Positions 2,761 through 63,712 of a stretch of DNA of 64,000 nucleotides are shown piece after piece. Position numbers and translations under genes: made by a program. Source of the DNA: Callorhinchus milii. Taxonomy: Eukaryota. How positions within the stretch are numbered: the first letter of the stretch is position 1; each line of letters begins with the position of its first letter. Location: contig NW_024704742.1 of assembly GCF_018977255.1 (NCBI RefSeq), forward strand, positions 8,434,001 through 8,498,000, in the 5' to 3' direction. The notes below the pieces were generated by a model that was not told the origin of the DNA, did no database searches, and was given only the letters and a program-made list of their open reading frames with translations.

Positions 2761-2950
2761 AATTTACAAGAATTTTCATATATAGCTAGAATTTGGTAGA
2801 TCGGGTTTTAAGGTTTATGGGGCAAGGGTGGATAATTGGACTGGAGGAACAGATCAGCCATGATCTTATAGAATGGCAGAATGGGCTTGAGGGACTGAAT
2901 GAATAGAGATGCACTCCTGTAATATTGATTTCCTTTACCTCTTCAGAAAC

Positions 2951-3035
2951 ATGATCGTTGAGGTTACAGGATCCTGGTCTAATCTCATCGTTCTCTTCCT
3001 CTTAGTCCTTCTGGCAGCATGGTTTCTCATGTCAG
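2951..3035 (+). CDS. APOL: APOL-A first coding exon (hydrophobic leader MIVEVTGSWSNLIVLFLLVLLAAWFLMS)
   Basis: Acceptor tttacctcttcAG at 2946, ATG at 2951, donor CAG|GTAAGG at 3035/3036. 85 nt, phase 1; joins in frame to the micro-exon and terminal exon. Paralogous exon at 63604. Confidence 0.65.
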
Positions 3036-6089: not shown

Positions 6090-6114
6090 ACAGTAAAGGA
6101 TGCAATGAAGACAG
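6090..6114 (+). CDS. APOL: APOL-A 25-nt micro-exon (DSKGCNEDR)
   Basis: tttctcaattgtttaacAG|...GACAG|GTACGT. Length 3n+1 converts phase 1 to phase 2 exactly as needed. Equivalent micro-exons exist in APOL-B (25 nt) and APOL-C (28 nt). Confidence 0.65.
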
Positions 6115-10133: not shown

Positions 10134-10665
10134 GGAGTCCTGTAGCTCAATGGTTAGAGCACTCGCCTTGCAATATAATAATAATAATCCTTGCATTTGA
10201 TATAGCACTTTTCACGTCTTCTAGACGTCCCAAAGCGCTTCACAGAATATACTGTAAAGTGAATTGACTGTATATTTGTGGGCGAACGCGGCAGCCAATT
10301 GAGCACAGCAATGTCCCACAAACAGTCATGGATTGAAAATGACCAATTTATTATTATTTTTGTTTTGGAGGGATTATTATTAGGCAAGCAAGAGACCTGG
10401 GTTCAATTCCAGGCAGAGTGAAACTTTGGGCAAATTTCCTTACTCCACACGCCTAATAATAATCCCTCCAAAACAAAAGAATAATAAATTGGTCATTTTC
10501 AATCCACGACTGTTTGTGGGACATTGCTGTGCGCAATTGGCTGCCGCGTTCACCCACAAATATACGGTCAATTCACTTTACAGTCTATTCTGTGAACCGC
10601 TTTGAGACGTCGAGAAGACGTGGAAAGCGCTATATCAAATGCAAGGATTATTATTATTATTATTA
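10134..10665 (+). mobile_element. tRNA-Deu SINE with a 5'-truncated antisense SINE (~10174-10385) nested in its tRNA head
   Basis: Head 10134-10173 breaks at TTGCAA, an inverted tail+core follows, and the head resumes at GCAAGAGACC ~10388. Confidence 0.9.
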
Positions 10666-10912
10666 ATGCCTGTGCCTCTGGAAAAGAAATATTTATTTTT
10701 GGAAATTTGTAAATCATCGTCTTCTGCTGCTCTCCTTGCTGGATCTCTCACTGCTTTGCTCACTTTAGCAAAAATATTGCGCCCTTTTTTGTTAAGCTTT
10801 AAGGTTTCAGCTCAAAACTATGTGTTGTTCTAAACTGTCATTTCGCCGACAATGTGTATTTATGTGAGAATTTATTTGAGAACAGATATCATTGTATTTA
10901 TTATATAAACAG

Positions 10913-12011
10913 GGAAGCCCTCGAAGCTGAGATGGAAAAGAGGATTGAAGAAGTGCAACGCTTTAAAGAGCTGTTTCCTGAATGGAAAAAAAAGATGAGG
11001 GAATACAAAGGAGCACTGTGCAATATTGCCGACAATATTGACACAGTTCACCAAGGTGCCACAATAGCCAACATTACAGGGTCCTCAATGGGTGCTGTCG
11101 GAGGAATTCTATCCATTGGTGGATTAATCGCTGCTCCTTTTACAATGGGTTCATCATTGGTGCTTGCAAGTTTGGGAGCTGGCATAGGTGTAGCTGGTGG
11201 TGTCACTAACATTGCAGCTAGTGGTGTGGATGCTTTTAAACAAGGGGACATAGCAAAACAAATAGATGAAATCATGAAACAATATAAAGAGGATAGTGCA
11301 GAAATGGCAGATTGCTGCGATCAGTGTGTTAAAACGATTCAATTCTTAAATCCCTGCCTTGATGGTTCAAATTGTACAGTGGAGAAAATAGCTGATACCT
11401 TAACAAAAAGGGTGATGATTCTTATTGCAGCGCACAAAGCAGCAAGCATAGCAGGGAGAGATGCAGCAAAGATAGCAGCAAATAAAGCAGTTAAAGAAGC
11501 AGCGAGGAAATCAGCAAAAGAAGCAATTAGGAAAGCAGCGAAAGAAGCAGCAGGTAAAGCAATGAGGAAAGCAGCGAAAGAAGCAGCAGGTAAAGCAATG
11601 AGGAAAGCAGTGAAAGAAGCAGCAGGTAAAGCAGTGAGCAAAGTAGCGAAAGAAGCAGCAGGTAAAGCAGTGAGCAAAGTAGCGAAAGAAGCAGCAGGTA
11701 AAGCAGTGAGCAAAGCAGCGAAAGAAGCAGCAGGTAAAGCAGCAGGTAAATCAGCAGGTAAAGCGGTGGCCAGAACCATGAGCAAACGAGCATTAGGCAC
11801 ACTGGGTCTGTCAGGACTCCTTGTTGGTTGGGATATCTATTCTATAGTAAAGGATTCCTTGGAACTTGCAGAGGGATCGGGGACACAACTTTCTAATCAG
11901 ATCCGAAAATTGGCCCAACAGATGGAGGATGAAGTAAAGATTTATGAAAAGCTTTATAATCCTCTAGAAGGTATTGCAGTGAATGATGCAGGGTGGAAAC
12001 AGCCCAACTAG
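10913..12011 (+). CDS. APOL: APOL-A terminal coding exon: apolipoprotein L domain with an inserted Ala/Lys-rich repeat
   Basis: APOL hallmarks: IADNIDTVHQGATIANITGSSMGAVGGILSIGGLIAAPFTMGSSLVL and C-terminal WDIYSIVKDSLELAEG...QIRKLAQQME. Acceptor AG at 10911-10912 (phase 2), TAG at 12009-12011. Spliced CDS 85+25+1099 = 1209 nt. Confidence 0.92.
11532..11747 (+). repeat. Coding minisatellite: 6 x 36 bp (12 aa, KAAKEAAGKAMR/KVAKEAAGKAVS), with degenerate flanks ~11440-11770
   Basis: Unit aaagcagcgaaagaagcagcaggtaaagcaatgagg recurs at 11532, 11568, 11604, 11640, 11676 and 11712. Confidence 0.95.
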
Positions 12012-12658
12012 TCCTGAGGATGAGATTATGTGTGTCAAAGGGTCTTCTTCATCTTAAACTTTCGAGTAAGTGAGCGAGTGAGTGAGGCAGTGAGTGAGGC
12101 AGGGAGGGAGGGAGTGAATGAATGTGTGAGGCAACGGGCAAGTGAGGGAATGAACGATGGAGGGAGTGAGGCAGTGAGTGAGTGAGCGAATGTTTGAGCG
12201 TAAGAGTGAAGTACATGAGCCCGCCTGTCCCTTTCCTCTCTTCTGTACCCCTATTCCTTTCTCTACTATGTATGAATCAAGTTTTCTCTTGAATAGATTG
12301 GTGCTTTCTGCTGCAACCATAGCTTCCGCAGTGAGTTTGACATTCTCACCATCCTCTGTGTGAAGAAATCCCCCTAAACTTTGTTTAACATCTCCTGCTG
12401 ACTATTTTAGATGTATTTCCTGTAGTTTTGGACTCACTAACACGTAAAACATCAACATCTAACTCATCAACTAATTTAATAAACTAAAACACCTCCATTA
12501 GCTTCACTCTCAATCATCTCAACTCGAGAGAGAAAAGTTTCAAACTGTCTAGTCTTTCCTGATAGTCATATCCACTCATCCCTGGGAACATCCTTATAAA
12601 TTATGACATCCTAGTAAAATTACAGTGCGACAGGAAAGTGAATCAATCAGGTGGCCCA

Positions 12659-18349: not shown

Positions 18350-19089
18350 CTAGTTTTGCTTTACAGTTTGACTTAAAGTTTCATAAACCTCTTCATACTT
18401 CTTTACCTCATCCTTTATCTTTTGAGCCACAGCTCGTATTTGTTTAGCCATTTCTGTCTCAGCTCCTTTGCTAAGGTCAATGGAATCCACTGTGATAGAG
18501 TAGATATCCCACACAACAAAGAGTCCTGACAGAACGCCAGAAACCGCCTTGAATGTTCTTAAGGACTGTTTGGACATTGCTGCAGCCACTGTAGCAATAA
18601 CACCTGTGCTTTTTGAAAAGACCTCAGTCACACCAATGAAAGCATCTTTTACTAATTCGTCACTGCAATTCTCATAGAAATGAACTGCATTGCAGAATTT
18701 ACTGAAGCAATCTGCCATTTCCTCACTGTCCCTTTTATACTCTTCCATGATTTCATTAACTCTTTTTTGTTTATTCGATTGTGAAACAGAATCTACTGCA
18801 TTAGCTGCGATGTTAGTGACACCACCAGCTACACCCACCCCAACTCCCACACCCGTGAGTACCCAATGATGTACCCAATGTGAAAGGGGCAGCAATTAAT
18901 CCTCCAATCGTTAGAGCCCCTCCAACAACACCTACAGAAGACCCTGTAATATTGGCAATGGTGGCACCTTTGTGACACTCGTCAATATTATTTGCGATCT
19001 CTTGGAGTAATGTCACGTGTTGATCCATCCGTTCTTTCCAGTCAGGAAACTTCTTTGAAAAACATTGTAAGTCCTCAGCTTTATTATTC
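18350..19089 (-). CDS. APOL: APOL-B terminal exon, apolipoprotein L domain, with a single +1 frameshift at 18862-18864 (recent pseudogene or assembly error)
   Basis: ORFs 18813-19028 (IANNIDECHKGATIANITGSS...IAAPFTLG) and 18350-18895 (VLTGVGVGVGVAGGVTNIA...WDIYSITVDSIDL) join if one G of TTGGGTACTC is removed. Phase-2 acceptor tatttatagcAG at 19091-19090. Confidence 0.88.
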
Positions 19090-29730: not shown

Positions 29731-30304
29731 TATTCATCTAGTTTAGCCGATATACATGGTTAGGTGGCCTACCATTCCCGTTACACTGTGCAGTGCTGCT
29801 GCTGTATCCCCGTTGTCACAACTCACTTCTTTTATGGGCTGTAGCCCCTAAAACTCTCCCGCGTTAATCTGGCCCTGTTGACCTGTTTGAAAGCGGGGAG
29901 GGAGGGAGTTGGAGGGACTTCAGGGAAAGAGTTCCTGAGAGCTGGGGAGACAAAATAGCGATGGTAAGGCAGATGGGGCGGGGGGTAAAATTGTTCATTC
30001 AGTCCATGGCTGTTCATGGGACCTTGCCTGGTCCAACTTGGCTGAGCATTCACCCACAAAACATAGAATCCCACATACGCTTTGAAAGACTTGAAAGACT
30101 CTGTATCAAATGAAACAATGAATATTATTATTACAATCTATGGGGAAGGAGTAATGCATGTAATTTAGATAGAAAATACATTCAAATGCGACAGGCAATA
30201 TTTTAAGGAAGGCACAGAGGTAAATGCCTCAATTTCTAAGTCACTGATCACTTGTGTGAGTTGTGTGGGAACAACAGATCTAATTGTATGTATAATATTA
30301 ACAG

Positions 30305-30877
30305 AAACAAGTTGAAATCATGGAACAATATAAAAAGGATAGTACAGAAATGGCAGATTGTTGCAATCAGTGTATTAACACTATTCAATTCTTACATCAC
30401 TGCAATGATTCCCAATATGCAATGGTTCCCAATATGCAATATGCAATATGCAATATGCAATGGTTCCCAATGTACGTTTGAGACGATAGCTGAAACCTTA
30501 GCAAAAAGAGTGAAGGTTCTTTCTAAAGTGTGCAAAGCAGCGAGATGTGCAGCAAAGACAGCAGCCAATAAAGCAGTAGAAAGAGCTGCAGGTAAAGCAG
30601 TGAGCAAAGCAGTGAGCAAAGCAATGTGCAGAACCACAAGCAAACAGACATTAGGCACACTGCAGACTCACAGTTGATTCAGAACTCCTTGCATGGGATG
30701 TCTATTCTATAGTAAAGGAATCAAAGGAACTTGCAGAGGGATCTGGGACAGAACTTGCCAAATAGAAATGAAAATCAGATAGAGGATGAAATAATGATGT
30801 ATGAAAAGATTTATAACCACTTAGAAGGTATTACAGAGAATGATACAGCACAGAAACAGGTCACACAACCGAACTAG
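30305..30877 (+). pseudogene. APOL: APOL pseudogene (paralogue of the APOL-A terminal exon)
   Basis: Aligns to 11260-12011. About 350 bp after the acceptor (including the GATIANITGS...AAPFT hairpin) is deleted, with frameshifts and stops. Homology continues in the 3' flank to ~31640 (=12772). Confidence 0.88.
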
Positions 30878-31978
30878 TCCTGAGGATGCAATTATGTGGG
30901 CTGAAGGGACTTGTTCATTTGAACCGCTCAAGGTAGTGAGGAGTGAGTGAGTGAGTGAGACAGTGAGTGAGTGAGCAAATGAATGAGTCAGTGCGTGAGT
31001 GAATATATGAGGCAGCAGGCGAGTGAGTGAGTGAGGGAATCAGGGACGGAGGGAGGGAGGCAGTGAGTGAGTGAACATTTGAGCGTATGAGAGAAGTACA
31101 TGAACCTGCCTGTTCCTTTCCCCTCTCCTATAGCCCTATTCCTTTCTCTCCCATGTATGAATCAAGTTTTCTCTTAAATAGATTGATGCTTTCTGCTGCA
31201 ACCATAGCTCACAATCCTCTGTGTGAAGAAATCCCCCCTAAACTCTGTTTAACATCTCCTGCTGACAATTTTAGATTATAATCTGTAGTTTTGGACTTAC
31301 TAACAGGTAAAACAACCCATCAACATCTAACTTATTAAATCCTTTCATAATCTAAAACCCCTCCATTAGCTTCACTCACAATCATCTCAACTCGAGAGAG
31401 AAAAGTTCCAAACTGTCTAGTCTTTCCTGATAGACGTATCCACTCATCCCTGGGAACATCCTTATAAATTACGACATCCTAGTAAAATTACAGTGCGACA
31501 GGAAAGTGAATCAATCAGGTGGCCCAGGGGGAGGGACAGAGGAACCATGTCCCTCTGTACAGGCCTGGGCGGCCTTGTTAATGATAGGACACTGCCTCTG
31601 TAGAGGGAGATGTTTCCTCTGTCCCTCCCCCTCTACAGACGCAATGTCTCATCAATAATTCGAACGAAAAATTTCCGCGAAAATCTTTTTTTTAACCACA
31701 CACCAGTCCCCTCAACATCAGCACCCCCACACTCTAGTCCCCCTAACAACCGCCCACTGACCAGCCCGCCAAACACCATCCCCCCCCCCCAGCAACACCT
31801 GAAGACCTTCCTTTTTGACCATCCCTACGGTCATCCTCCTTCTGTCCCTGACTCAGTGTCAGACTCCGCACTGTTGAGCGCTCCTACACACTACCCCATG
31901 TGAAGGGCTGTGTAAAGGCAAACTGGTGTTTGTGTTGATTTGTGGGTAAGCCCGACAGCCAATATGGAGTCCTGTTGG

Positions 31979-32290: not shown

Positions 32291-34776
32291 TTCATTGTAT
32301 GCGCACAGCAGACAGGACCTTGGTTTAACGTCTCACCCTAAGGACAACACCTCCGAGAACCTGTCTCTCTTCCAGCACTAGGTTGGAGAGTCAGCCTGGA
32401 CTGACAGCTCGTGGAAAAAATCCCCACCTGATGTTCAGTCGGTTTTTTAACTTCACTTCAACAGATGCAATAACTGGCTCCAGGTGGCAGTGTCCCCTAT
32501 AACCTGAACTGTGTCCAACACCAGAACCTTGTGACCACAATCAAACCTCAATTACCAGATTGTCAGCTATTGTACCTGGTGCCCTCAGTATTACCAGTGT
32601 TTAAATATGAATATACTCAGAGCCGGAAGTAATAATAATCCATGCATTTGATACAGCGCCTTTCATATCAGCAGGATGTCTCAAAGGCCTTCACAGCAGG
32701 GGAGTGACTGTATATTTTGTGGGTGGATTAGGCAGCCAATTTGCTCACAGCATTATCCCACACACAGCCATGAACTGTACCTAGGAGATTGTTGAACCTT
32801 CTCCTTTTGACTCGTGCCGCAAGATATTTAATGTCCAGCTGACCAGGCAGATTGGACCTAGTTTAACAGCTCTATCTGAAGGGTTCTGAGACACTATTCT
32901 GCTTGAAGGATGAGGTATCATCAATAGCGGGTTTTATAAATGCATAAATGCAAGTATATAAATGCATGTTGATGTTGAAGGACAGTACTTCTGACAATAC
33001 AACATACCCCCAGCACGGAAGTAGTGTGACAGCCTACACCAAGGTGGTTCCATCCATGCCAGCGGATGATTTCACCTGGCCTGAGATCATTTCCCACTGT
33101 GGGGCACCCCCTCCCTCCCTGATGAACTGTATTCTCATAGCAGTGGCCTAAACTATGTGAGTTCCAAATCCCTGACCTAGAGTTCGAACCTATAAACATT
33201 TAACTCATAGGTAAGAGTGCTACTTTAAGACAGGCTGACATATGATCCTGTCACCAACTTTGGAAACTGTGAGTGCACGTGGGAACTTTAGGTGAGGGAC
33301 AGGATTTGAGCTGTTTCCACCCCTACCCCACCTCCCCAGGGATGGTGGACTCTCCTGCCCCTCACTCTCAAGGTCATGTATGAATGGGAGCTCAGGCAGA
33401 GGTGTAGGAGGTGCCTGTGGAGATGCCCCTCAGTGTAGAGAGAAGTGCAACAAGTTGTGGTGAGAGCTGGCAGCATGGATTTTGGGAATCAGAGCAGCAC
33501 ATGCTGTGAAACTAACATTTAATATACTGTAATGGGCACTAGGAACGCAGGACAGGAAGGCTTGAGGGGAGTCTGTGACCTCTCCTTCTCCATTTCAAAC
33601 ACCATATTACATTCAATTATACACATATTGTGGTCACTGATTCCAAGTTGGTCTCTAACCACCAGATTATTAACTCTGGTTCATTACTCATTGCCAAATC
33701 TAGCATTGCCTGGTCCCTTGTAAGTTCTAAAACTTACTGTTTTGGAAAACAATCCTGTGTGCATTCCGAAAATGTACTCATTATTTGCAGCTGTAATGTT
33801 CCTAGTACTATCCTCCTGGGGGTGGATGGGGAGTGTGGAGATAAGTGGGGTCTCCTCGGTGCTGAACTGGTTCCAAGAATCATGGTTGGCAGTGGAATGT
33901 CAGAATCAAGCCAGCCATCTGTGACGGTCTCCAGCCCCGTTCCTCAGCCAAGCAGGTCTGCAGTATTCCAGGGCATTTCTGATTCCAGACTGGCTCATTG
34001 GCAGGATTTGGAAGAGCAGACCAATCGCTGGGGGCAGGGACTCTACCCACTCAGCTCCTGTTAATCCTCAAGCCAAAGAATCCTCTGGGGTCCCAAACCT
34101 TCAACCATCTGATGTAATTTCTCCAGAACCTCCACCATAACATCTGCCTGTACACAGTGCTGACCGAGCACTATCTTGCTCTCAATGGCAAGTTATGCTG
34201 TCTCAGCTGGTTTAACTCCATTAGATATCTCCACCCATACTCTGATATATTAGTTCAATTCTCCACATGAGGCTTGGATGCACAACCAAGCCTCAGAGGC
34301 CTGAGAGCTGCTAACCTAGTCAGGCTGGCACACAATAGATAGCTCTTTATATCAAAAGTTATGACAAACATTCTGGTGCATGAACTATCAGTGCGGAACC
34401 ATCACAGTGATCTTTATTATTGGTCTCCCACCGATCCACCCTGTAACCTTGTCCTGTGCCCTGTGGACTCTCAGGGACTGGAATCCAGAATTATTGCTCA
34501 GCTTCACATTTACCAGAATATCAGTGATCGCACCTTCATTTATTCCTTCACCTTTGTCCTGTCCCACCATCTTATGTTTAAATTAGTCATATTCTTTAGA
34601 GCCAATATTGAATGGGTGAGTGAACATGAAAGTGAAAGGAACTTGTTGGAGTTTCCGTGCTGGTGAACGTTCTACACTGAATATGATTGATTTTGGGCAG
34701 TGTGTTAGGCCAAGTGAGGTTACTGGAGCTTGGTGTTCAGACAGTCACTTCAGCACTGTTTGTGATATTTCATGTC

Positions 34777-39851: not shown

Positions 39852-40572
39852 TCAGGGCTGCCCCTCAGCAATGCACAGCCTTTTGCCTCCCGCTAATCGT
39901 GTCAGCATCCTGTGCTTCTTCTCCAGCTCCCGTAATAAAACCTCCCAGCGCTTAGCTTCCTCTCGGATCTTTTCTGCATCTTCCTTCTTCTTCTTTTCTG
40001 TTTTGAACCTAACCACATTTCTGACCAGTGAGGTGACATCTCCCAGCAGGGGGAAGGCTGACAAGGTGGTACTGGCAGCGACTTGAAGACCTACAGTGAT
40101 CAGCTTCTTGACCTTCTCTCTTGCCCTCCTGTGTTTCGTGTTTGGCTCAGTTTTGGAGCTTGGAGGGAAACACGCCAGTATTTTTGTGCGGGCTGAGTTA
40201 TATTTATTCACAATCGCATCAATTCGTTTTTTTGCTTTCATTTTTTTTAAGGATCTTTTGGCACCAGCTGTGAAGTTAGTGGCATTGCCAGCGATGCCCA
40301 GTCCAGTCCCCACGGCTGTGAGTGCCAACGATGCCCCCAGGGTGAAAGGAGCAGCGATTGCTCCTCCGACTGCAAGAAGCCCTCCCACCATTCTCACAGA
40401 AGACCCCGTGACTTTGGCAATGTTGCTGCTCTCTTGACATTTCTCAATGTCATTTGCGATGTCTCCCAGGTCCTGGATGCAATCTCTGATACATTTATTC
40501 TGGTCAGGAAACACCTGCAAAAAACTCTGTAGATCTTCGTCATGCTGTTCCTGCTCAGCTTCCTCCAGATCC
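39852..40572 (-). CDS. APOL: APOL-C terminal exon, divergent apolipoprotein L domain
   Basis: LGDIANDIEKCQESSNIAKVTGSSVRMVGGLLAVGGAIAAPFTLGASLALTAVGTGLGIAG. Open to TGA; phase-2 acceptor AG at 40574-40573; ATTAAA on minus at 39821-39816. Confidence 0.9.
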
Positions 40573-41233
40573 CTGCTCATAACAAAATCTAGAATTATTT
40601 TAAACATTGCATTTACAGGGGAGGGGAAGACATCTCAAAGCACTTCACAGGATTCACTGTAAAGTGGTGACTGTATATTTTTGTGGGTGAACACAGCAGA
40701 CAATTTCTGCACAGGAACGTCCCACAAACGGCTATCAAGTGCATTTCATTAGCGCTCTGAGTTACTACCCCGCGTGAAGGTGGTGTATAAATGTAAGTTG
40801 TTGTTGTTGAAGGTAATGACCAGTTGATCTGGAGGATTGTGGGCCAGGGCACTGGAGGAAACTCTCACTCTGTGCTTCTAGCACTCCTCACCAATCTCCC
40901 CAGCTCCATCATCCACAAGGTCCAGCTCATCCAAAACTCCACCACTGTATCCTCAGCCACTTTCCTTCCAATGTGAAAAGCAATATAAATGTAATTTGTT
41001 GTTAGGCATGCTGATGGGTTTCCACATGTGGCTGACCAAAATCAAATTCCCACCTTACACCTTCCTTTTCGACTGCACATATGCACAAAGTGGTCACCCA
41101 CCTTTCCCGTTTTCTCTTCCTCAGTGTCTAACTTTGCAATATGAAGTCCTCCAACACATTCCCCTATGTGACTGTGCCGTGTAGATACAAGTTGAGAAGA
41201 GAATCCATTCATTCCGTAGCAGCTCACACTTAC

Positions 41234-43826: not shown

Positions 43827-44114
43827 GCGCTTTTCACGTCGGGAGGACGTCCCAAAGTGCTTTACAGAACACACTGTAAAGTGAATTGACTGCATATTTG
43901 TGGGCGAACGCGGCAGCCAATTGCGCACAGCAATGTCTCACAAACAGTCGTAGATTGAAAATGACCAATTTATTATTGTTTTTGGTTTTGGAGGGATTAT
44001 TATTAGGCTCTGTGTGGAGTAAGGAAACTTGCCCAAGGTTTCGCCCTCTGCCTGGAATTGAACTGAGGTCTCTCACTTGCAAAGCAAGTGCTCTAACCAC
44101 TGAGCTACAGGACT
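43459..44114. mobile_element. Nested SINE pair: plus-strand SINE (~43484-43822) inserted into the tail of a minus-strand SINE
   Basis: The minus SINE tail 43459-43483 resumes at ~43823. TATAGC occurs on both sides of the insert. Confidence 0.9.
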
Positions 44115-44119
44115 CGATG

Positions 44120-44585
44120 AATGTCTTGAGAGGGGCATTGAAGGAGATAAGGGAGGGAGCGAGGCAGAGAGATTCTGGGATGGAATTCCAGAAGGGTGGA
44201 GGCAGAGAGTCTCTGGGATGGAGTTCCAGGGTAGGCAGAAAGGCTGAAGGACGAAGATTTTGAACTTGGTTCTCTACATGATGGGGAACCAATGGAGCTG
44301 AGAGAGGATTGGGGGTGATCAGTTCATGGAGCTTAGTGCAGGAGAGGACACAAGGTGCAAAGTTCTGAATAATCTGCATCTTGTGGAGGGAAGAGTTGAG
44401 CAGTCCGGCAAGCAGGGAGTTAGCATAATCAGGCCTGAACATAGTGAAGGCATGGATGAGGATTTCAACAGCCAGAGCACAGAAGAAGTGGCAAAGGCAC
44501 ACATTTTGCAGAGCTGGGGGAAGATAGAACAGGTCGTGGATGGATGTGGGGTTTAAAAGATATTTGAAGTTCAAACAAGACACTA
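44120..44585 (-). mobile_element. L2 3' fragment
   Basis: EILIHAF...DYANSLLAGL...LHKMQIIQN. Confidence 0.8.
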
Positions 44586-44589
44586 AGCA

Positions 44590-59429: not shown

Positions 59430-60515
59430 TGTTAGAATAAAATGAGATAATTTCATACGCTAATTGGTTATAGAAACACTCTAGTGAAAGAAAGTTGTGT
59501 TGTAAATTTGCCTACAACTTATTGCAGCTTAGGTAGAATTCCTCCTGTGTATTCAGCCGGTCAGTCATACAGGTCACCCAGGCTCCCAGGTAAATGGGTT
59601 GTTTGTTGCTAAACTATCAATGTTAACAATTTGTACTGTCTCAGGACACCTAGTGCTGTAACCAGGAGTAACTTTTACTGATGTTGAGGAACAGAGCCAT
59701 CACATGGAGTAGATATGTAGGTTAAAGGTTTAAAAGAGAATAAAAAGACAAATGAAGTTGTGAGGTTTATATCCAGGAATATTGACTATAAAGCAGGAAG
59801 TGAGAACTTTATCCAGGACATTAGTTAGAATATTGTGTGTATTTTTACAGCTATAGAGAAGCTATGGATGGCATCGATTCTCAAGGGGAATGAATATCAG
59901 AGTGGAGGTTTATATGGAGTATAAACACCAGGCGAAGGACTGAATGGGCAGTGTCTGTGCTGTAATGCTCTATGTAATTCTATGAGGAGCCGTGGTTTCA
60001 GGAGAGGCTCAACAAATTGGGGTTGTTTTTGCTGAAACAGAGAAAAGATACGATAGAGGACTTAACAGAGGATAGAGGAATTTCCTCTCCCCATGGATGC
60101 TGCCTGACCAGTTGTGTGTTTCCAGCCACTTCTGTGTTTATACCACATTTCCAGCATCGACAGCCTTTTGTTTAGAGGATTTAACATTCTGAAACAGATT
60201 GTGAGGTTAAACAGTAACAGATTATTGCTGCTCAGTGCACAGTGATAAGTGTGATGTGGGGTTGAGGCCTGTGTTCTGTTACTATTATGGATATAGGGTT
60301 TGGTTACAGATTATCAAACCCCCTCAGAAACAACTTTACATTTTAAACAATTGACTTTGTCTGACTGTGTCTAAAAATGGCTGTTCTTCAGCTGTTCAGC
60401 GTGTGCTGAGTTCCTGTAGTGACTAATCCTCAACATCAACCAGACCAGCCCAACCAGACAATAGAAATCCTGATCATATAACAAAAAAACAGGACTGGAT
60501 GATAGAAAACTGATG
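59430..60515 (+). repeat. Direct segmental duplicate of ~878-1930 (APOL-A promoter, exon 1, intron 1)
   Basis: Colinear high-identity match including the donor at 59589. ISRE is shortened to AGTGAAAGAAAGT (59483-59495). Confidence 0.9.
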
Positions 60516-61663: not shown

Positions 61664-63603
61664 GTCGCTGACTTCCTTACCCTTACAGCACCTTGGGATG
61701 TCCTCCTGATGTGAAAGGCATATAAAATGTGTAAAATGTAATTTTGTGTTGTATTACCCGCACAAAGCTTCTCACGTCCATCAACGTCAACAGGCTCAAT
61801 TGGCTCTCTGTCACCCAATGGATTGACTTAAAGATGCTCAACTGCAAATCCCTGTGCGGCTGTACTCCACCTTAACTCTCTGTACCGCTCCCACTTCCTC
61901 ACTCCCCAACCCACCATCTGGCACCTCTGCACGACTGACACTGGCTCATCCCTCACACCCTCCGCTTTCAGCCACTACACCCAGAAATTTTGGAACATTC
62001 TCCCTCAATCCCTCCGCCTTGCCCCCCCTCTCCCCCTTTTCAAGTCCCACCTGAAAACCTTCCTTTTCAACTGTGCTTATGGTAATCTCCAACCCCTCTC
62101 GGCTCGGAGTCAGGCTCCATCACTGTTAAGAACAAGTTGTTGTTGTCGACCTTTAGCTGACTGACAACCTTGCTCTCCAAGACACTACCCAGTGTGAAGC
62201 CACAAAAACAATTGTAGTCGTTTTTGTGGCTTGACTCCTCCATACACATAAAGTATATTGCCTAGGCAAGAATTTAATTTTTTTCCTGTATCATTCATCC
62301 CAACATGGATTCTAACCATTGGATATTCTCATAACCACTAGAATATTAACACAGTTTGCTCCGATGTGTTCCCTTTCCCCAGCACCGGAGAGGGAACTCA
62401 CCATAAGGGCTTACAGATCATATTTACTAACCTGCCTGTCTGTCTGTCTGTCTGTCTGTCCTTCTGTCTGTCTTACACACCACAGAAATTTTGACACAGT
62501 CAGTGACTATTCGATCCATTGGATAGGTGTTGGTGTTTACTCTTCCAATGAAGCCTCAAAGCAAATCACAATTCCCTGTTCTCCCCCTGTATCACCTAAT
62601 ACCCCTCTCTGTATGAGCCAATTAAATAAGCGCTCTGAGATTCTACCTGCGTAAAGGATGGTGTAGCAAGCTGTTGTTGTTGATTCCCTTTTAAATATCC
62701 CAAAGGATTGGGACCCTTGGAAATTAATTGCGTATTCCCACAGCTCTCTAGGAGGAGTGGGAATATGCAATTTACCTCTAATTCCCCCTTTCATATACCC
62801 AGTTTAGTCTTAAATTCACACCCTTATTCACCTGCAAAGCACAGTCACTCCACTTTACTGTAAATCCTGTGGAGTGCTTTGGGACGTGAAAGGCAAGTAA
62901 CAGCAACTTGCATATATATAGCCCCCTCTCATGCAGGGTAGCTTCCCAGGGCGCTTGACAGTAGCGGATCACGATGCCCAGCCAAGGGGAGGGAGGAGGA
63001 GACCATAAGCACGGTCAAGGAGAAAAGTCTTCAGCCATGACCTAAGATGGGAAGAAAGAGGTAAGACAGAGTGAGTCATACCTCAAAACTAAGCTACTGT
63101 TGATAAGTAGTAGCTTGCTGCATAAGTTTTAATGTACAGTATATAATAATAATCCTTGCATTTGATATAGTGTCTTATCATGTCTTTGAGACGTCTCAAA
63201 GCACTTCACAGAATATACTGTAAAGTGAATGACATAGACAGGATCCTATTTCACCATTTTCTAGACATTATCGAGGACGAGGGAATGAATATGTTGAGTA
63301 TTTGTTCAAACATCCAACTTTTGAAAGTAGCTATTTTGAAGATTTGCTAAAGCTTTGAGAGGGAACACAACTCCGAGCAGAAAAGACCAGAGCAAATAGT
63401 CTCTTTCAACACAAAGCACCTGTGCAAAATGTCTGAATAACAAACCAATGAAATCACATTTGTGGATGTGATGGCCTTTTCTGGAGGCAATAGGAGGAAT
63501 AATTGACAATAATGCTCTGGTCAAGACTTTCCTTCAGTCACTTGAGTGCTAACAGAGACTTGGTGGTACCAATGCTCACCCTGCCCTGCCACATGCTCTT
63601 CAG

Positions 63604-63712
63604 AAACATGATCTTTGAGGTTTTAGGTTCCTGGTCTGGACTCATCGCCCTTTGCTTCTTATTCCTTTTGGCAGCATGGTTTCTCATATCATGGACTCAT
63701 TCCAGTTTATGA
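63604..63712 (+). pseudogene. APOL: APOL-D leader exon (paralogue of 2947-3035) with the splice donor lost; duplication continues to the window end
   Basis: ctcttcAG|aaacATG ATC TTT GAG (MIFEVLGSWSGLIALCFLFLLAAWFLIS). GTAAGG donor is absent and the frame runs to TGA at 63710-63712. 63690-64000 matches ~3050-3353. Confidence 0.65.

Follow-up and report, generated by a model that had tools for sequence, protein, structure and literature searches.

Apolipoprotein L proteins (APOLs) are innate-immune membrane effectors whose mechanism is debated, the proposals being channel formation, detergent-like action, and control of membrane dynamics. Human APOL1–6 (PF05461) are described, in the excerpted text of PMC8358165 and PMC8446801, with a hydrophobic helix–loop–helix hairpin, a later hydrophobic segment with a conserved aspartate (human D348, in the pore-lining region), and a C-terminal heptad helix; APOL1 also has an N-terminal hydrophobic signal-type segment. 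We analyzed a window of 64,000 nucleotides (G000:C1:8434001-8498000) from the 991-Mb genome of the elephant shark, Callorhinchus milii; coordinates below are those of the window unless stated otherwise. The window contains the gene LOC121849701 (here gene A), which has the same domain match, a hairpin, a probable equivalent of the pore-lining segment with its aspartate, and an N-terminal hydrophobic signal-type segment like that of APOL1, along with a predicted C-terminal helix of heptad-like spacing. In contrast to human APOLs, gene A encodes ∼85 extra Ala/Lys tandem-repeat residues directly before the pore-lining segment, and no equivalent of the third transmembrane span of APOL1 was seen in it. 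These residues stem from a genuine coding minisatellite, which lies in frame within the last exon. We consider it reasonably probable that the minisatellite arose by amplification of a unit private to one APOL subfamily and that the encoded tract is tolerated, not precisely selected.

The open reading frame (ORF) at 10914–12011 of the forward strand, on which all parts of gene A lie, gave a product 100% identical to P0004 in a database protein search, a protein of 420 amino acids named “uncharacterized protein LOC121849701 [Callorhinchus milii].” Its gene model is thus in the public record, though uncharacterized. By ORF, Pfam match, and identity to P0004, the coding part of the last exon extends to the stop codon (10913–12011) and holds a complete ApoL domain together with the repeat. 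The earlier note on this DNA had called the gene an APOL, and the Pfam ApoL match (PF05461; 127.3 bits, cut-off 25.9; E = 1.1e-36) bears this out. The match is split in two by the repeat, its first stretch ending at profile position 244 of 298.

The order of elements along the protein is the hydrophobic hairpin, a Cys-rich helical stretch, the Ala/Lys tract, and then directly the segment ALGTLGLSGLLVGWDIYSIVK. The Gly/Ala/Ser-rich hairpin, equivalent to the membrane-insertion domain, spans residues 109–158 (11073–11222; mean hydrophobicity 0.5–0.7), and its residues G119, G125, P130, T132, G134, S136, and G143 are nearly invariant in an alignment of 98 sequences. The hydrophobic segment ALGTLGLSGLLVGWDIYSIVK (11790–11852) contains the motif WDIY and is the probable pore-lining equivalent. 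Its conserved aspartate, Asp-362 (codon 11832–11834), is matched by Asp at that alignment position in 91 of the 98 APOL homologs. Excerpts of PMC8358165 give human D348 as conserved in all APOLs, and Asp-362 is presumably its counterpart, the human sequence lying outside our alignment. The C-terminal helix with heptad-like hydrophobic spacing (11880–11993; AlphaFold helix 378–415, pLDDT, the predicted local distance difference test score, 88–95) is a candidate equivalent of the zipper of other APOLs. Its hydrophobic positions (381, 385, 388, 392, 396, 399, 402, 406, and 409) follow a spacing of 3–4 with one irregular step. Around residues 217–235, mean hydrophobicity reaches only 0.24–0.29, and no hydrophobic segment there matches the third transmembrane span of APOL1.

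At the DNA level, the coding minisatellite occupies 11437–11764 on the forward strand. Tandem Repeats Finder reports a 36-nucleotide (nt) higher-order repeat of 8.5 copies at 11437–11742 (87% matches, score 379), in which a 12-nt period is nested that reaches 11764. The underlying 12-nt unit is GCAGCAGGTAAA, encoding Ala-Ala-Gly-Lys. Every 36-nt unit consists of three 12-nt subunits, (V/M/I)(S/R)K(A/V), (A/V)KEA, and AGKA, which imposes a strict four-residue rhythm on the protein. In the frame of the exon, six near-perfect 12-residue units, IRKAAKEAAGKA, MRKAAKEAAGKA, MRKAVKEAAGKA, VSKVAKEAAGKA twice, and VSKAAKEAAGKA, lie at 11526–11741 (P0004 residues 260–331), preceded by three degenerate units and trailed by one. 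Thus, the six units that the earlier note had placed between the hydrophobic hairpin and WDIY are real.

The six units differ pairwise at 0–4 of 36 nucleotides. Neighbors are 0–1 nt apart, with a single step of 4 as the exception; between units 7 and 8 there is no difference at all. This near-identity, together with a sister pseudogene that holds about one unit, supports the recent expansion that had been proposed. Codon use in the array is uneven, with GCA 34 times and GCG 7 times for alanine and AAA 25 times for lysine. The units stand head to tail, have a length that is a multiple of three, and lie in frame inside an exon, as expected of a coding minisatellite. Coding minisatellites, or variable number tandem repeats (VNTRs), occur in surface and immune genes, where units of a multiple of three nucleotides expand and contract in frame. 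The array of gene A resembles VNTRs in its in-frame multiple-of-three units and differs in that it is known here from one assembly, not from length variation among individuals. Antisense ORFs across the array were set aside as a mechanical consequence of the repeat. Each unit at 11545–11764 also carries GCAG|GTAAAG, which resembles a 5′ splice donor; such cryptic donors could in principle yield shortened isoforms.

Arrays of this kind are hard to assemble, and an assembly artefact might account for the number of copies or for some of the array, which we regard as very improbable. We compared contigs of four public runs (X1, X4, X6, and X7; short-word contigs) with positions 10500–12400. Run X1, whose contig total is near genome size and which covers the intron, reproduces 11096–11558 with 1 difference (A>G at 11434), and X6 reproduces 11296–11558 with 0 differences. 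On the other side, 11698/11713–12093 is reproduced by X4, X6, and X7 with 0–1 differences. Taken together, contigs from three studies match both edges of the array (11096–11558, with 3.4 left units, and 11698/11713–12098) with 0–1 differences. An artefact would fit with the lack of any independent contig across 11559–11712. However, breaks at 11558 and 11713 are expected, because contigs built from 31-mers must break at near-identical 36-nt units. The orderly gradient of differences between units and the related arrays in two paralogs further argue against an artefact.

An older model of gene A, P0005 (214 amino acids), has no array and would also fit with an artefact. It continues from ...ILIAA into sequence beyond the stop codon and skips 609 nt (11433–12041), including the array and the pore-lining segment. 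We rejected splicing as the cause, since the skipped stretch is not bounded by GT..AG; the model may instead reflect an earlier assembly that had a gap or deletion there, or it may be an artefact of modeling. Runs X4 and X6 are guessed to be RNA (contig totals of 94 and 74 million letters). They contain 68 and 53% of the sampled words, respectively, and leave the intron at 10692–10819 uncovered. No splice joint was seen in their contigs, in which uncovered parts prove nothing, and we draw no claim on expression from them. A joint from 10536 to 10855 in both runs was dismissed as spurious, its shorter side being 27 letters long and starting in a very high-copy repeat.

The encoded Ala/Lys tract comprises 116 amino acids (P0004 residues 232–347; 11442–11789). 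A 121-residue stretch around it contains 43 Ala, 26 Lys, 7 Arg, 8 Glu, and 1 Asp, giving a net charge of +24. AlphaFold, run on the single sequence of 11379–11891, predicts one helix at residues 2–121 (P0004 212–331), i.e. through the sixth near-perfect unit, where pLDDT drops from 82–90 to ∼50; a break and the pore-lining helix follow. AlphaFold2 with the 98-sequence alignment gives a mean pLDDT of 65.1, with helices at 211–275 (block means 52–76) and 282–304 (∼60). These models weakly support a helix-prone tract, and their tertiary arrangement is not reliable. The repeat is in frame and net cationic, as stated by the earlier note, and its predicted helicity, at low to moderate model confidence, is in line with the helix-prone character claimed there.

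Ala/Lys-rich sequence favors the α-helix, as in designed helices such as EAAAK linkers. The likeness of the tract to such linkers, to TolA domain II, and to histone H1 tails that had been put forward holds for composition; at E ≤0.01, no Pfam family other than ApoL matched the protein. Unlike EAAAK linkers, gene A has a glycine in each unit, with Glu and Lys far from equal in number. We also considered a single α-helix (ER/K) domain, in which Glu balances Lys/Arg, and rejected it on the count of 9 Glu+Asp against 33 Lys+Arg and 43 Ala in 121 amino acids. Likewise, 11/22-mers of the exchangeable-apolipoprotein or synuclein type do not describe the tract, which has a period of 12 (4+4+4). Over 72 residues, its hydrophobic moment is 0.62 at 90° per residue and 0.02 at the α-helical 100°. 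An amphipathic appearance is confined to windows of 12–18 residues; the 100° moment cancels past ∼18 residues, and the helix is not coherently amphipathic. In the ESM Atlas, ApoL leads stayed below 0.9 and structure rows below a TM (template modeling) score of 0.55, and none was used.

The repeat is not a one-off in this genome, as it had appeared to be. When the genome was searched with the doubled 12-nt unit (≤2 mismatches over 991 Mb), all 32 matches fell in three APOL paralogs (2 in gene A, 26 in paralog B, and 4 in paralog C), and the reversed unit, used as a control over the whole genome, gave 0 matches. Therefore, the array is private to one subfamily and is not a dispersed satellite. 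Paralogs B and C share with gene A the 12-nt unit, its position and frame, and the flanking APOL sequence.

Paralog B (G000:C1:8504756-8506183, within locus L002, G000:C1:8503256-8507176) is the next paralog downstream, and its last exon lies 7 kb past the end of the window. It has an open frame of 501 amino acids and, at L002 2162–2680, 43.2 copies of the 12-nt unit (87% matches). The units read AAGK (13), AAGE (13), AASK (10), AVGE (3), and four single variants. Whereas gene A is organized in 36-nt units, B is without this structure and is rich in glutamate, its tract of 231 amino acids containing 38 Lys and 19 Glu for a net charge of +18. In paralog C (L003), the array counts 9.5 units, and the reading frame is shifted by the loss of 2 nt compared with B. 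The flanks of B and C are 97.5% identical (268 of 275 and 84 of 86 positions), yet their arrays are ∼33 units apart, so that arrays lengthen or shorten far more rapidly than point substitutions build up. Gene A and B are 91% identical in the 3′ flank, and 310 of 383 aligned bases are identical in the upstream intron. In the N-terminal part (164 codons), their synonymous divergence (dS) is 0.146 and the ratio of nonsynonymous to synonymous divergence (dN/dS) is 1.26; in the C-terminal part (63 codons), dS is 0.128 and dN/dS is 0.8.

The sister pseudogene, 5′-truncated and frameshifted, lies at 30300–30880 on the forward strand. Its Ala/Lys segment (∼30513–30640) retains about one unit, ...KAVERAAGKAVSKAVSKA..., as had been noted, and the two further APOLs of the window (exons at 18350–19076 and 39852–40634, both on the minus strand) are indeed free of the repeat.

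To place the tract within the family, we used an exhaustive profile-free protein search, which returned 1386 proteins at E ≤0.001; the family figures given here rest on the best 150 of these 1386. A composition filter applied to 24-residue windows (Ala ≥33%, small plus charged residues ≥85%, and Lys+Arg ≥12%) detected tracts of at least 24 residues in 10 of 158 proteins. The query accounts for two of the 10, and the longest tract apart from these measures 43 amino acids (P0008). Between the hairpin and the pore-lining segment lie 99 amino acids at the median of the 133 proteins with both anchors (163 scanned), compared with 184 in gene A. Only three others among the 133 reach a spacing of 180: P0024, P0051, and P0126. 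We ruled out P0024 and P0051 as long-spacer APOLs on account of their duplicated C-terminal halves, whereas P0126 has a genuine Gly/Arg-rich tract of ∼80 amino acids at the tract site. Smaller tandem or low-complexity tracts occupy the same site in P0117 (three 9-residue units), P0055, P0024, and P0008 (...AAGKAAGKAVSKTAAKA...). The Pfam ApoL domain was confirmed for P0008, P0117, P0126, and P0055 and was precomputed for P0024.

Compared with whole proteins, the 36 residues before the pore-lining segment are enriched across 97 homologs in Ala/Gly/Ser/Thr (43% versus 32%) and slightly in Lys/Arg (14% versus 12%) and are depleted in Asp/Glu (5% versus 12%). The insert of ∼110 amino acids reported earlier thus stands in that a 116-residue tract splits the Pfam match; it is an exaggerated form of a small-residue, basic segment found throughout the family and not a foreign insertion.

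Long tracts also exist outside the vertebrate-type APOLs. A word-based search with the tract of B and its C terminus led to P0165, P0168, P0192, and P0009, four APOL-like proteins that can be aligned with each other (alignment A4). The C-terminal anchor identified P0168, P0192, and P0009, and P0165 was added by alignment. Compared with the APOL alignment, this clade matches over the hairpin region with an hhalign probability of 99.1% (E = 6.5e-19), and all four members are under the Pfam ApoL cut-off (the best, P0192, scores 22.1 bits against 25.9). Each contains an Ala/Lys/Thr/Gly tract of 130–170 amino acids that ends at a PLLNxGFxAWDxY motif, and the tract of P0165 is plainly tandem (AAGKGATR/AAGKAATK). 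The clade is similar to gene A in the hairpin, the long tract, the P-L-L-N-x-G-F-x-A-W-D-x-Y motif, and the C-terminal helix. It differs in its Pfam score and in tracts that, P0165 excepted, are older, more diverged, and richer in Thr and Glu. With these tracts at the same site, the repeat is not a one-off among APOL-like proteins either. Judged by these sequences, long tracts are rare among vertebrate-type APOLs (best 150 of 1386) yet recur at one site.

The word-based search with the B tract gave 31 matches, of which only P0004 has a Pfam ApoL domain. Outside alignment A4, the matches (bacteria, a dinoflagellate, and others) were set aside as compositional matches and not checked singly. In the exhaustive search, P0011 (5937 amino acids, 30 matched stretches) is a Thr/Lys mucin-like, low-complexity false match. 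Our literature search turned up no paper on repeats of this kind in APOLs and none, functional data included, on the APOLs of cartilaginous fishes. A single paper in it names both “apolipoprotein L” and “elephant shark” (10.1101/693333), in unrelated places. Two other architectures came up among fish APOL-domain proteins: P0162, named Nek8-like, represents fish proteins fused to protein-kinase-like sequence (Pfam kinase plus ApoL), and P0023 has repeated N-terminal APOL fragments.

The APOL pore-lining helix is normally preceded by a short Ala/Lys stretch resembling ...AAGKAVSKA..., and the array grew from this stretch. In one young subfamily of the cluster, its 12-nt unit GCAGCAGGTAAA has been amplified repeatedly and independently, probably by slippage or unequal exchange. 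Because the unit is 12 nt long, every growth step keeps the frame. The outcomes are 8.5 copies of a 36-nt unit in gene A, 43 and 9.5 copies of the 12-nt unit in B and C, and about one in the pseudogene. In gene A, the connector between the hairpin and the pore-lining helix would thereby have been lengthened from the family median of ∼100 to 184 amino acids and would have gained ∼+24 in charge, in the form of either a helix-prone, solvent-exposed Ala/Lys rod or a flexible polycationic tether. Since this site accepts low-complexity growth throughout the family, the array is most likely tolerated rather than precisely selected.

A plausible side effect of the added charge is a stronger electrostatic pull toward anionic membranes. 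Basic stretches of APOL helix 5 have been proposed to bind anionic lipids (excerpts of PMC11726835). The open channel of human APOL1 is proposed, in excerpts of PMC8446801, to need translocation of residues 276–305, which lie between the third and fourth transmembrane spans; the same source states that the structures of APOL loops are not known. A tract as long and charged as that of gene A is unlikely to cross a bilayer, unlike the far shorter 276–305 loop of APOL1, N-terminal to its pore-lining region, which is proposed to do so. With a tract of 116–230 amino acids and a charge of +18 to +24, and with no third hydrophobic span, the tract is expected to stay on the side of insertion. The protein of gene A possibly has a different membrane mode.

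The array might instead be a selected effector module, with an arms race against microbes or parasites setting its length and charge, and might act as a polycationic arm that docks on anionic microbial membranes or as a switch from a channel to a surface-acting, detergent-like mode. The presence of Ala/Lys-rich tracts at exactly one site in three shark paralogs and in the distant APOL-like clade would suit such a module, as would the net charge of +24, the ISRE-like motif (interferon-stimulated response element) upstream of exon 1, and a dN/dS near or above 1, which is common in immune effectors. Both A (365 codons) and B (465 codons) have kept an intact reading frame despite a dS of ∼0.14; however, a 12-nt unit keeps the frame automatically. 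Excerpts of PMC11726835 further describe a detergent-like action of APOL3 on bacteria and binding of basic APOL helices to anionic lipid. Nevertheless, near-identical paralogs differ wildly in tract length and charge density (43 units and +18 over 231 amino acids in B, 9.5 units in C), and no coherent amphipathic face extends past ∼18 residues. We hold a selected module to be rather unlikely.

A bolder version treats the segment before the pore helix as an evolvable tuning knob, at which Ala/Lys arrays grew independently in the shark paralogs and in the distant APOL-like clade. Selection would act on array length and charge, either to direct the protein toward particular membranes (anionic, microbial) or to keep the region before the pore helix from being translocated, and the shark arrays would be length-polymorphic immune alleles. 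We think this doubtful. If it were true, blocked translocation would change a channel-forming protein into one that disrupts membranes from the surface.

At the other extreme, gene A could be decaying, or dispensable and polymorphic, and the repeat could be neutral low-complexity growth in a birth-and-death cluster. The dN/dS of ∼1 between A and B would agree with this, as would the broken state of two relatives, the window pseudogene and the frameshifted paralog C, and the fact that the product is named only an “uncharacterized protein” in its source database. A contig of run X1 covering 11713–12098 is without 19 bases at 11796 (11796–11814) at full local depth (8.64/8.64), and this deletion, which may be a segregating null allele, would truncate the protein ahead of the conserved aspartate. 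Runs X4, X6, and X7, however, have the undeleted sequence at 11796, and the nearly invariant residues of the family, including Asp-362, are kept in gene A.

The gene structure also speaks against decay: all four coding exons are complete, the splice sites are canonical GT-AG, and the frame is open over 420 codons. The coding part of exon 1 (976–1025), located by tblastn with the N terminus of P0004 and by sequence reading, starts at the ATG at 976 and ends before the donor GT at 1026. Exon 2 (2947–3035; AG acceptor and GT donor) encodes the hydrophobic segment WSNLIVLFLLVLLAAWFLM; mean hydrophobicity is 0.64–0.76 over residues 19–48. Its 19-residue hydrophobic segment behind a 26-residue lead suggests a putative signal peptide or signal anchor. 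Exon 3, found by tblastn, is 25 nt long (6090–6114) and encodes ...DSKGCNED-; the last exon follows at 10913. Decay of the gene is, in our view, unlikely.

We thus return to in-frame growth that was tolerated, and several observations weigh against it. The protein is a predicted product, and any role of the tract would be hypothetical. The dN/dS of ∼1 fits relaxed constraint as well as it fits an arms race, and two of the four subfamily members (the pseudogene and C) are broken. The 19-nt deletion of X1, at full depth, would bring in a stop codon 10 codons downstream, ahead of Asp-362. Between 11559 and 11712, which no contig of the four runs bridges, the number of inner units is that given by the assembly. 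The AlphaFold2 run with the alignment has pLDDT values below 50 across 299–356 and across the hairpin. The tract of B is far less cationic per residue (net +18 over 231 amino acids), and so charge is not the conserved property. Finally, the recurrence of Ala/Lys tracts in the distant clade could mean selection and not tolerance.

In spite of these points, the array is probably best seen as a fast-changing, tolerated extension and not as a unique invention. The paralogs form a natural series of ∼1, 9.5, 26 (8.5 × 3), and 43 subunits that differ mainly in the length of the segment before the pore helix. This series offers a ready test of the role of the segment and of whether it needs to pass through the membrane. 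In a genome that evolves slowly, it is also a record of very rapid turnover of an in-frame array. Set against this significance, the tract may be merely tolerated low-complexity growth.

The wider locus showed further features. When all six frames of the genome were searched with the product of the exon, 36 matches were obtained, 33 of them inside C1:8.36–8.73 Mb. Here, G000:C1:8359715-8727631 forms a tandem APOL cluster of ∼370 kb with intact and broken members, and one more locus is found at C1:72.33 Mb. Two exons of paralog B are inside the window (exon 1 at 59549–59596 and exon 2 at 63602–63691). Its exon 1 is without the ATG used by gene A, and the methionine in exon 2 is kept. Three protein database searches returned no protein matching B, which may be unannotated.

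Upstream of gene A, a motif of the ISRE/IRF (interferon regulatory factor) type, GTGAAAGTGAAAGAAAG, is located at 928–945 and ends ∼30 nt before the ATG of exon 1. A looser ISRE/IRF pattern matches three times in the window against 0.25 expected, the other two matches being at 34622 and 55653. The region 10500–10640 belongs to a very high-copy interspersed repeat, with a summed contig depth of up to 4.4 million in run X1, and similar copies are present at 10154–10402 (minus strand) and near 43834–44589. The pseudogene has a CAATATG-type microsatellite of its own at 30395–30460, in the Cys-rich region upstream of its Ala/Lys segment. Gene A, the pseudogene, and paralogs B and C all carry a (GAGT)n / GAGTGAGG microsatellite 50–110 nt past the stop codon (12064–12186 in gene A, 30930–31000 in the pseudogene, L002 2999–3189 in B, and L003 2581–2765 in C), a conserved 3′ feature of the subfamily.

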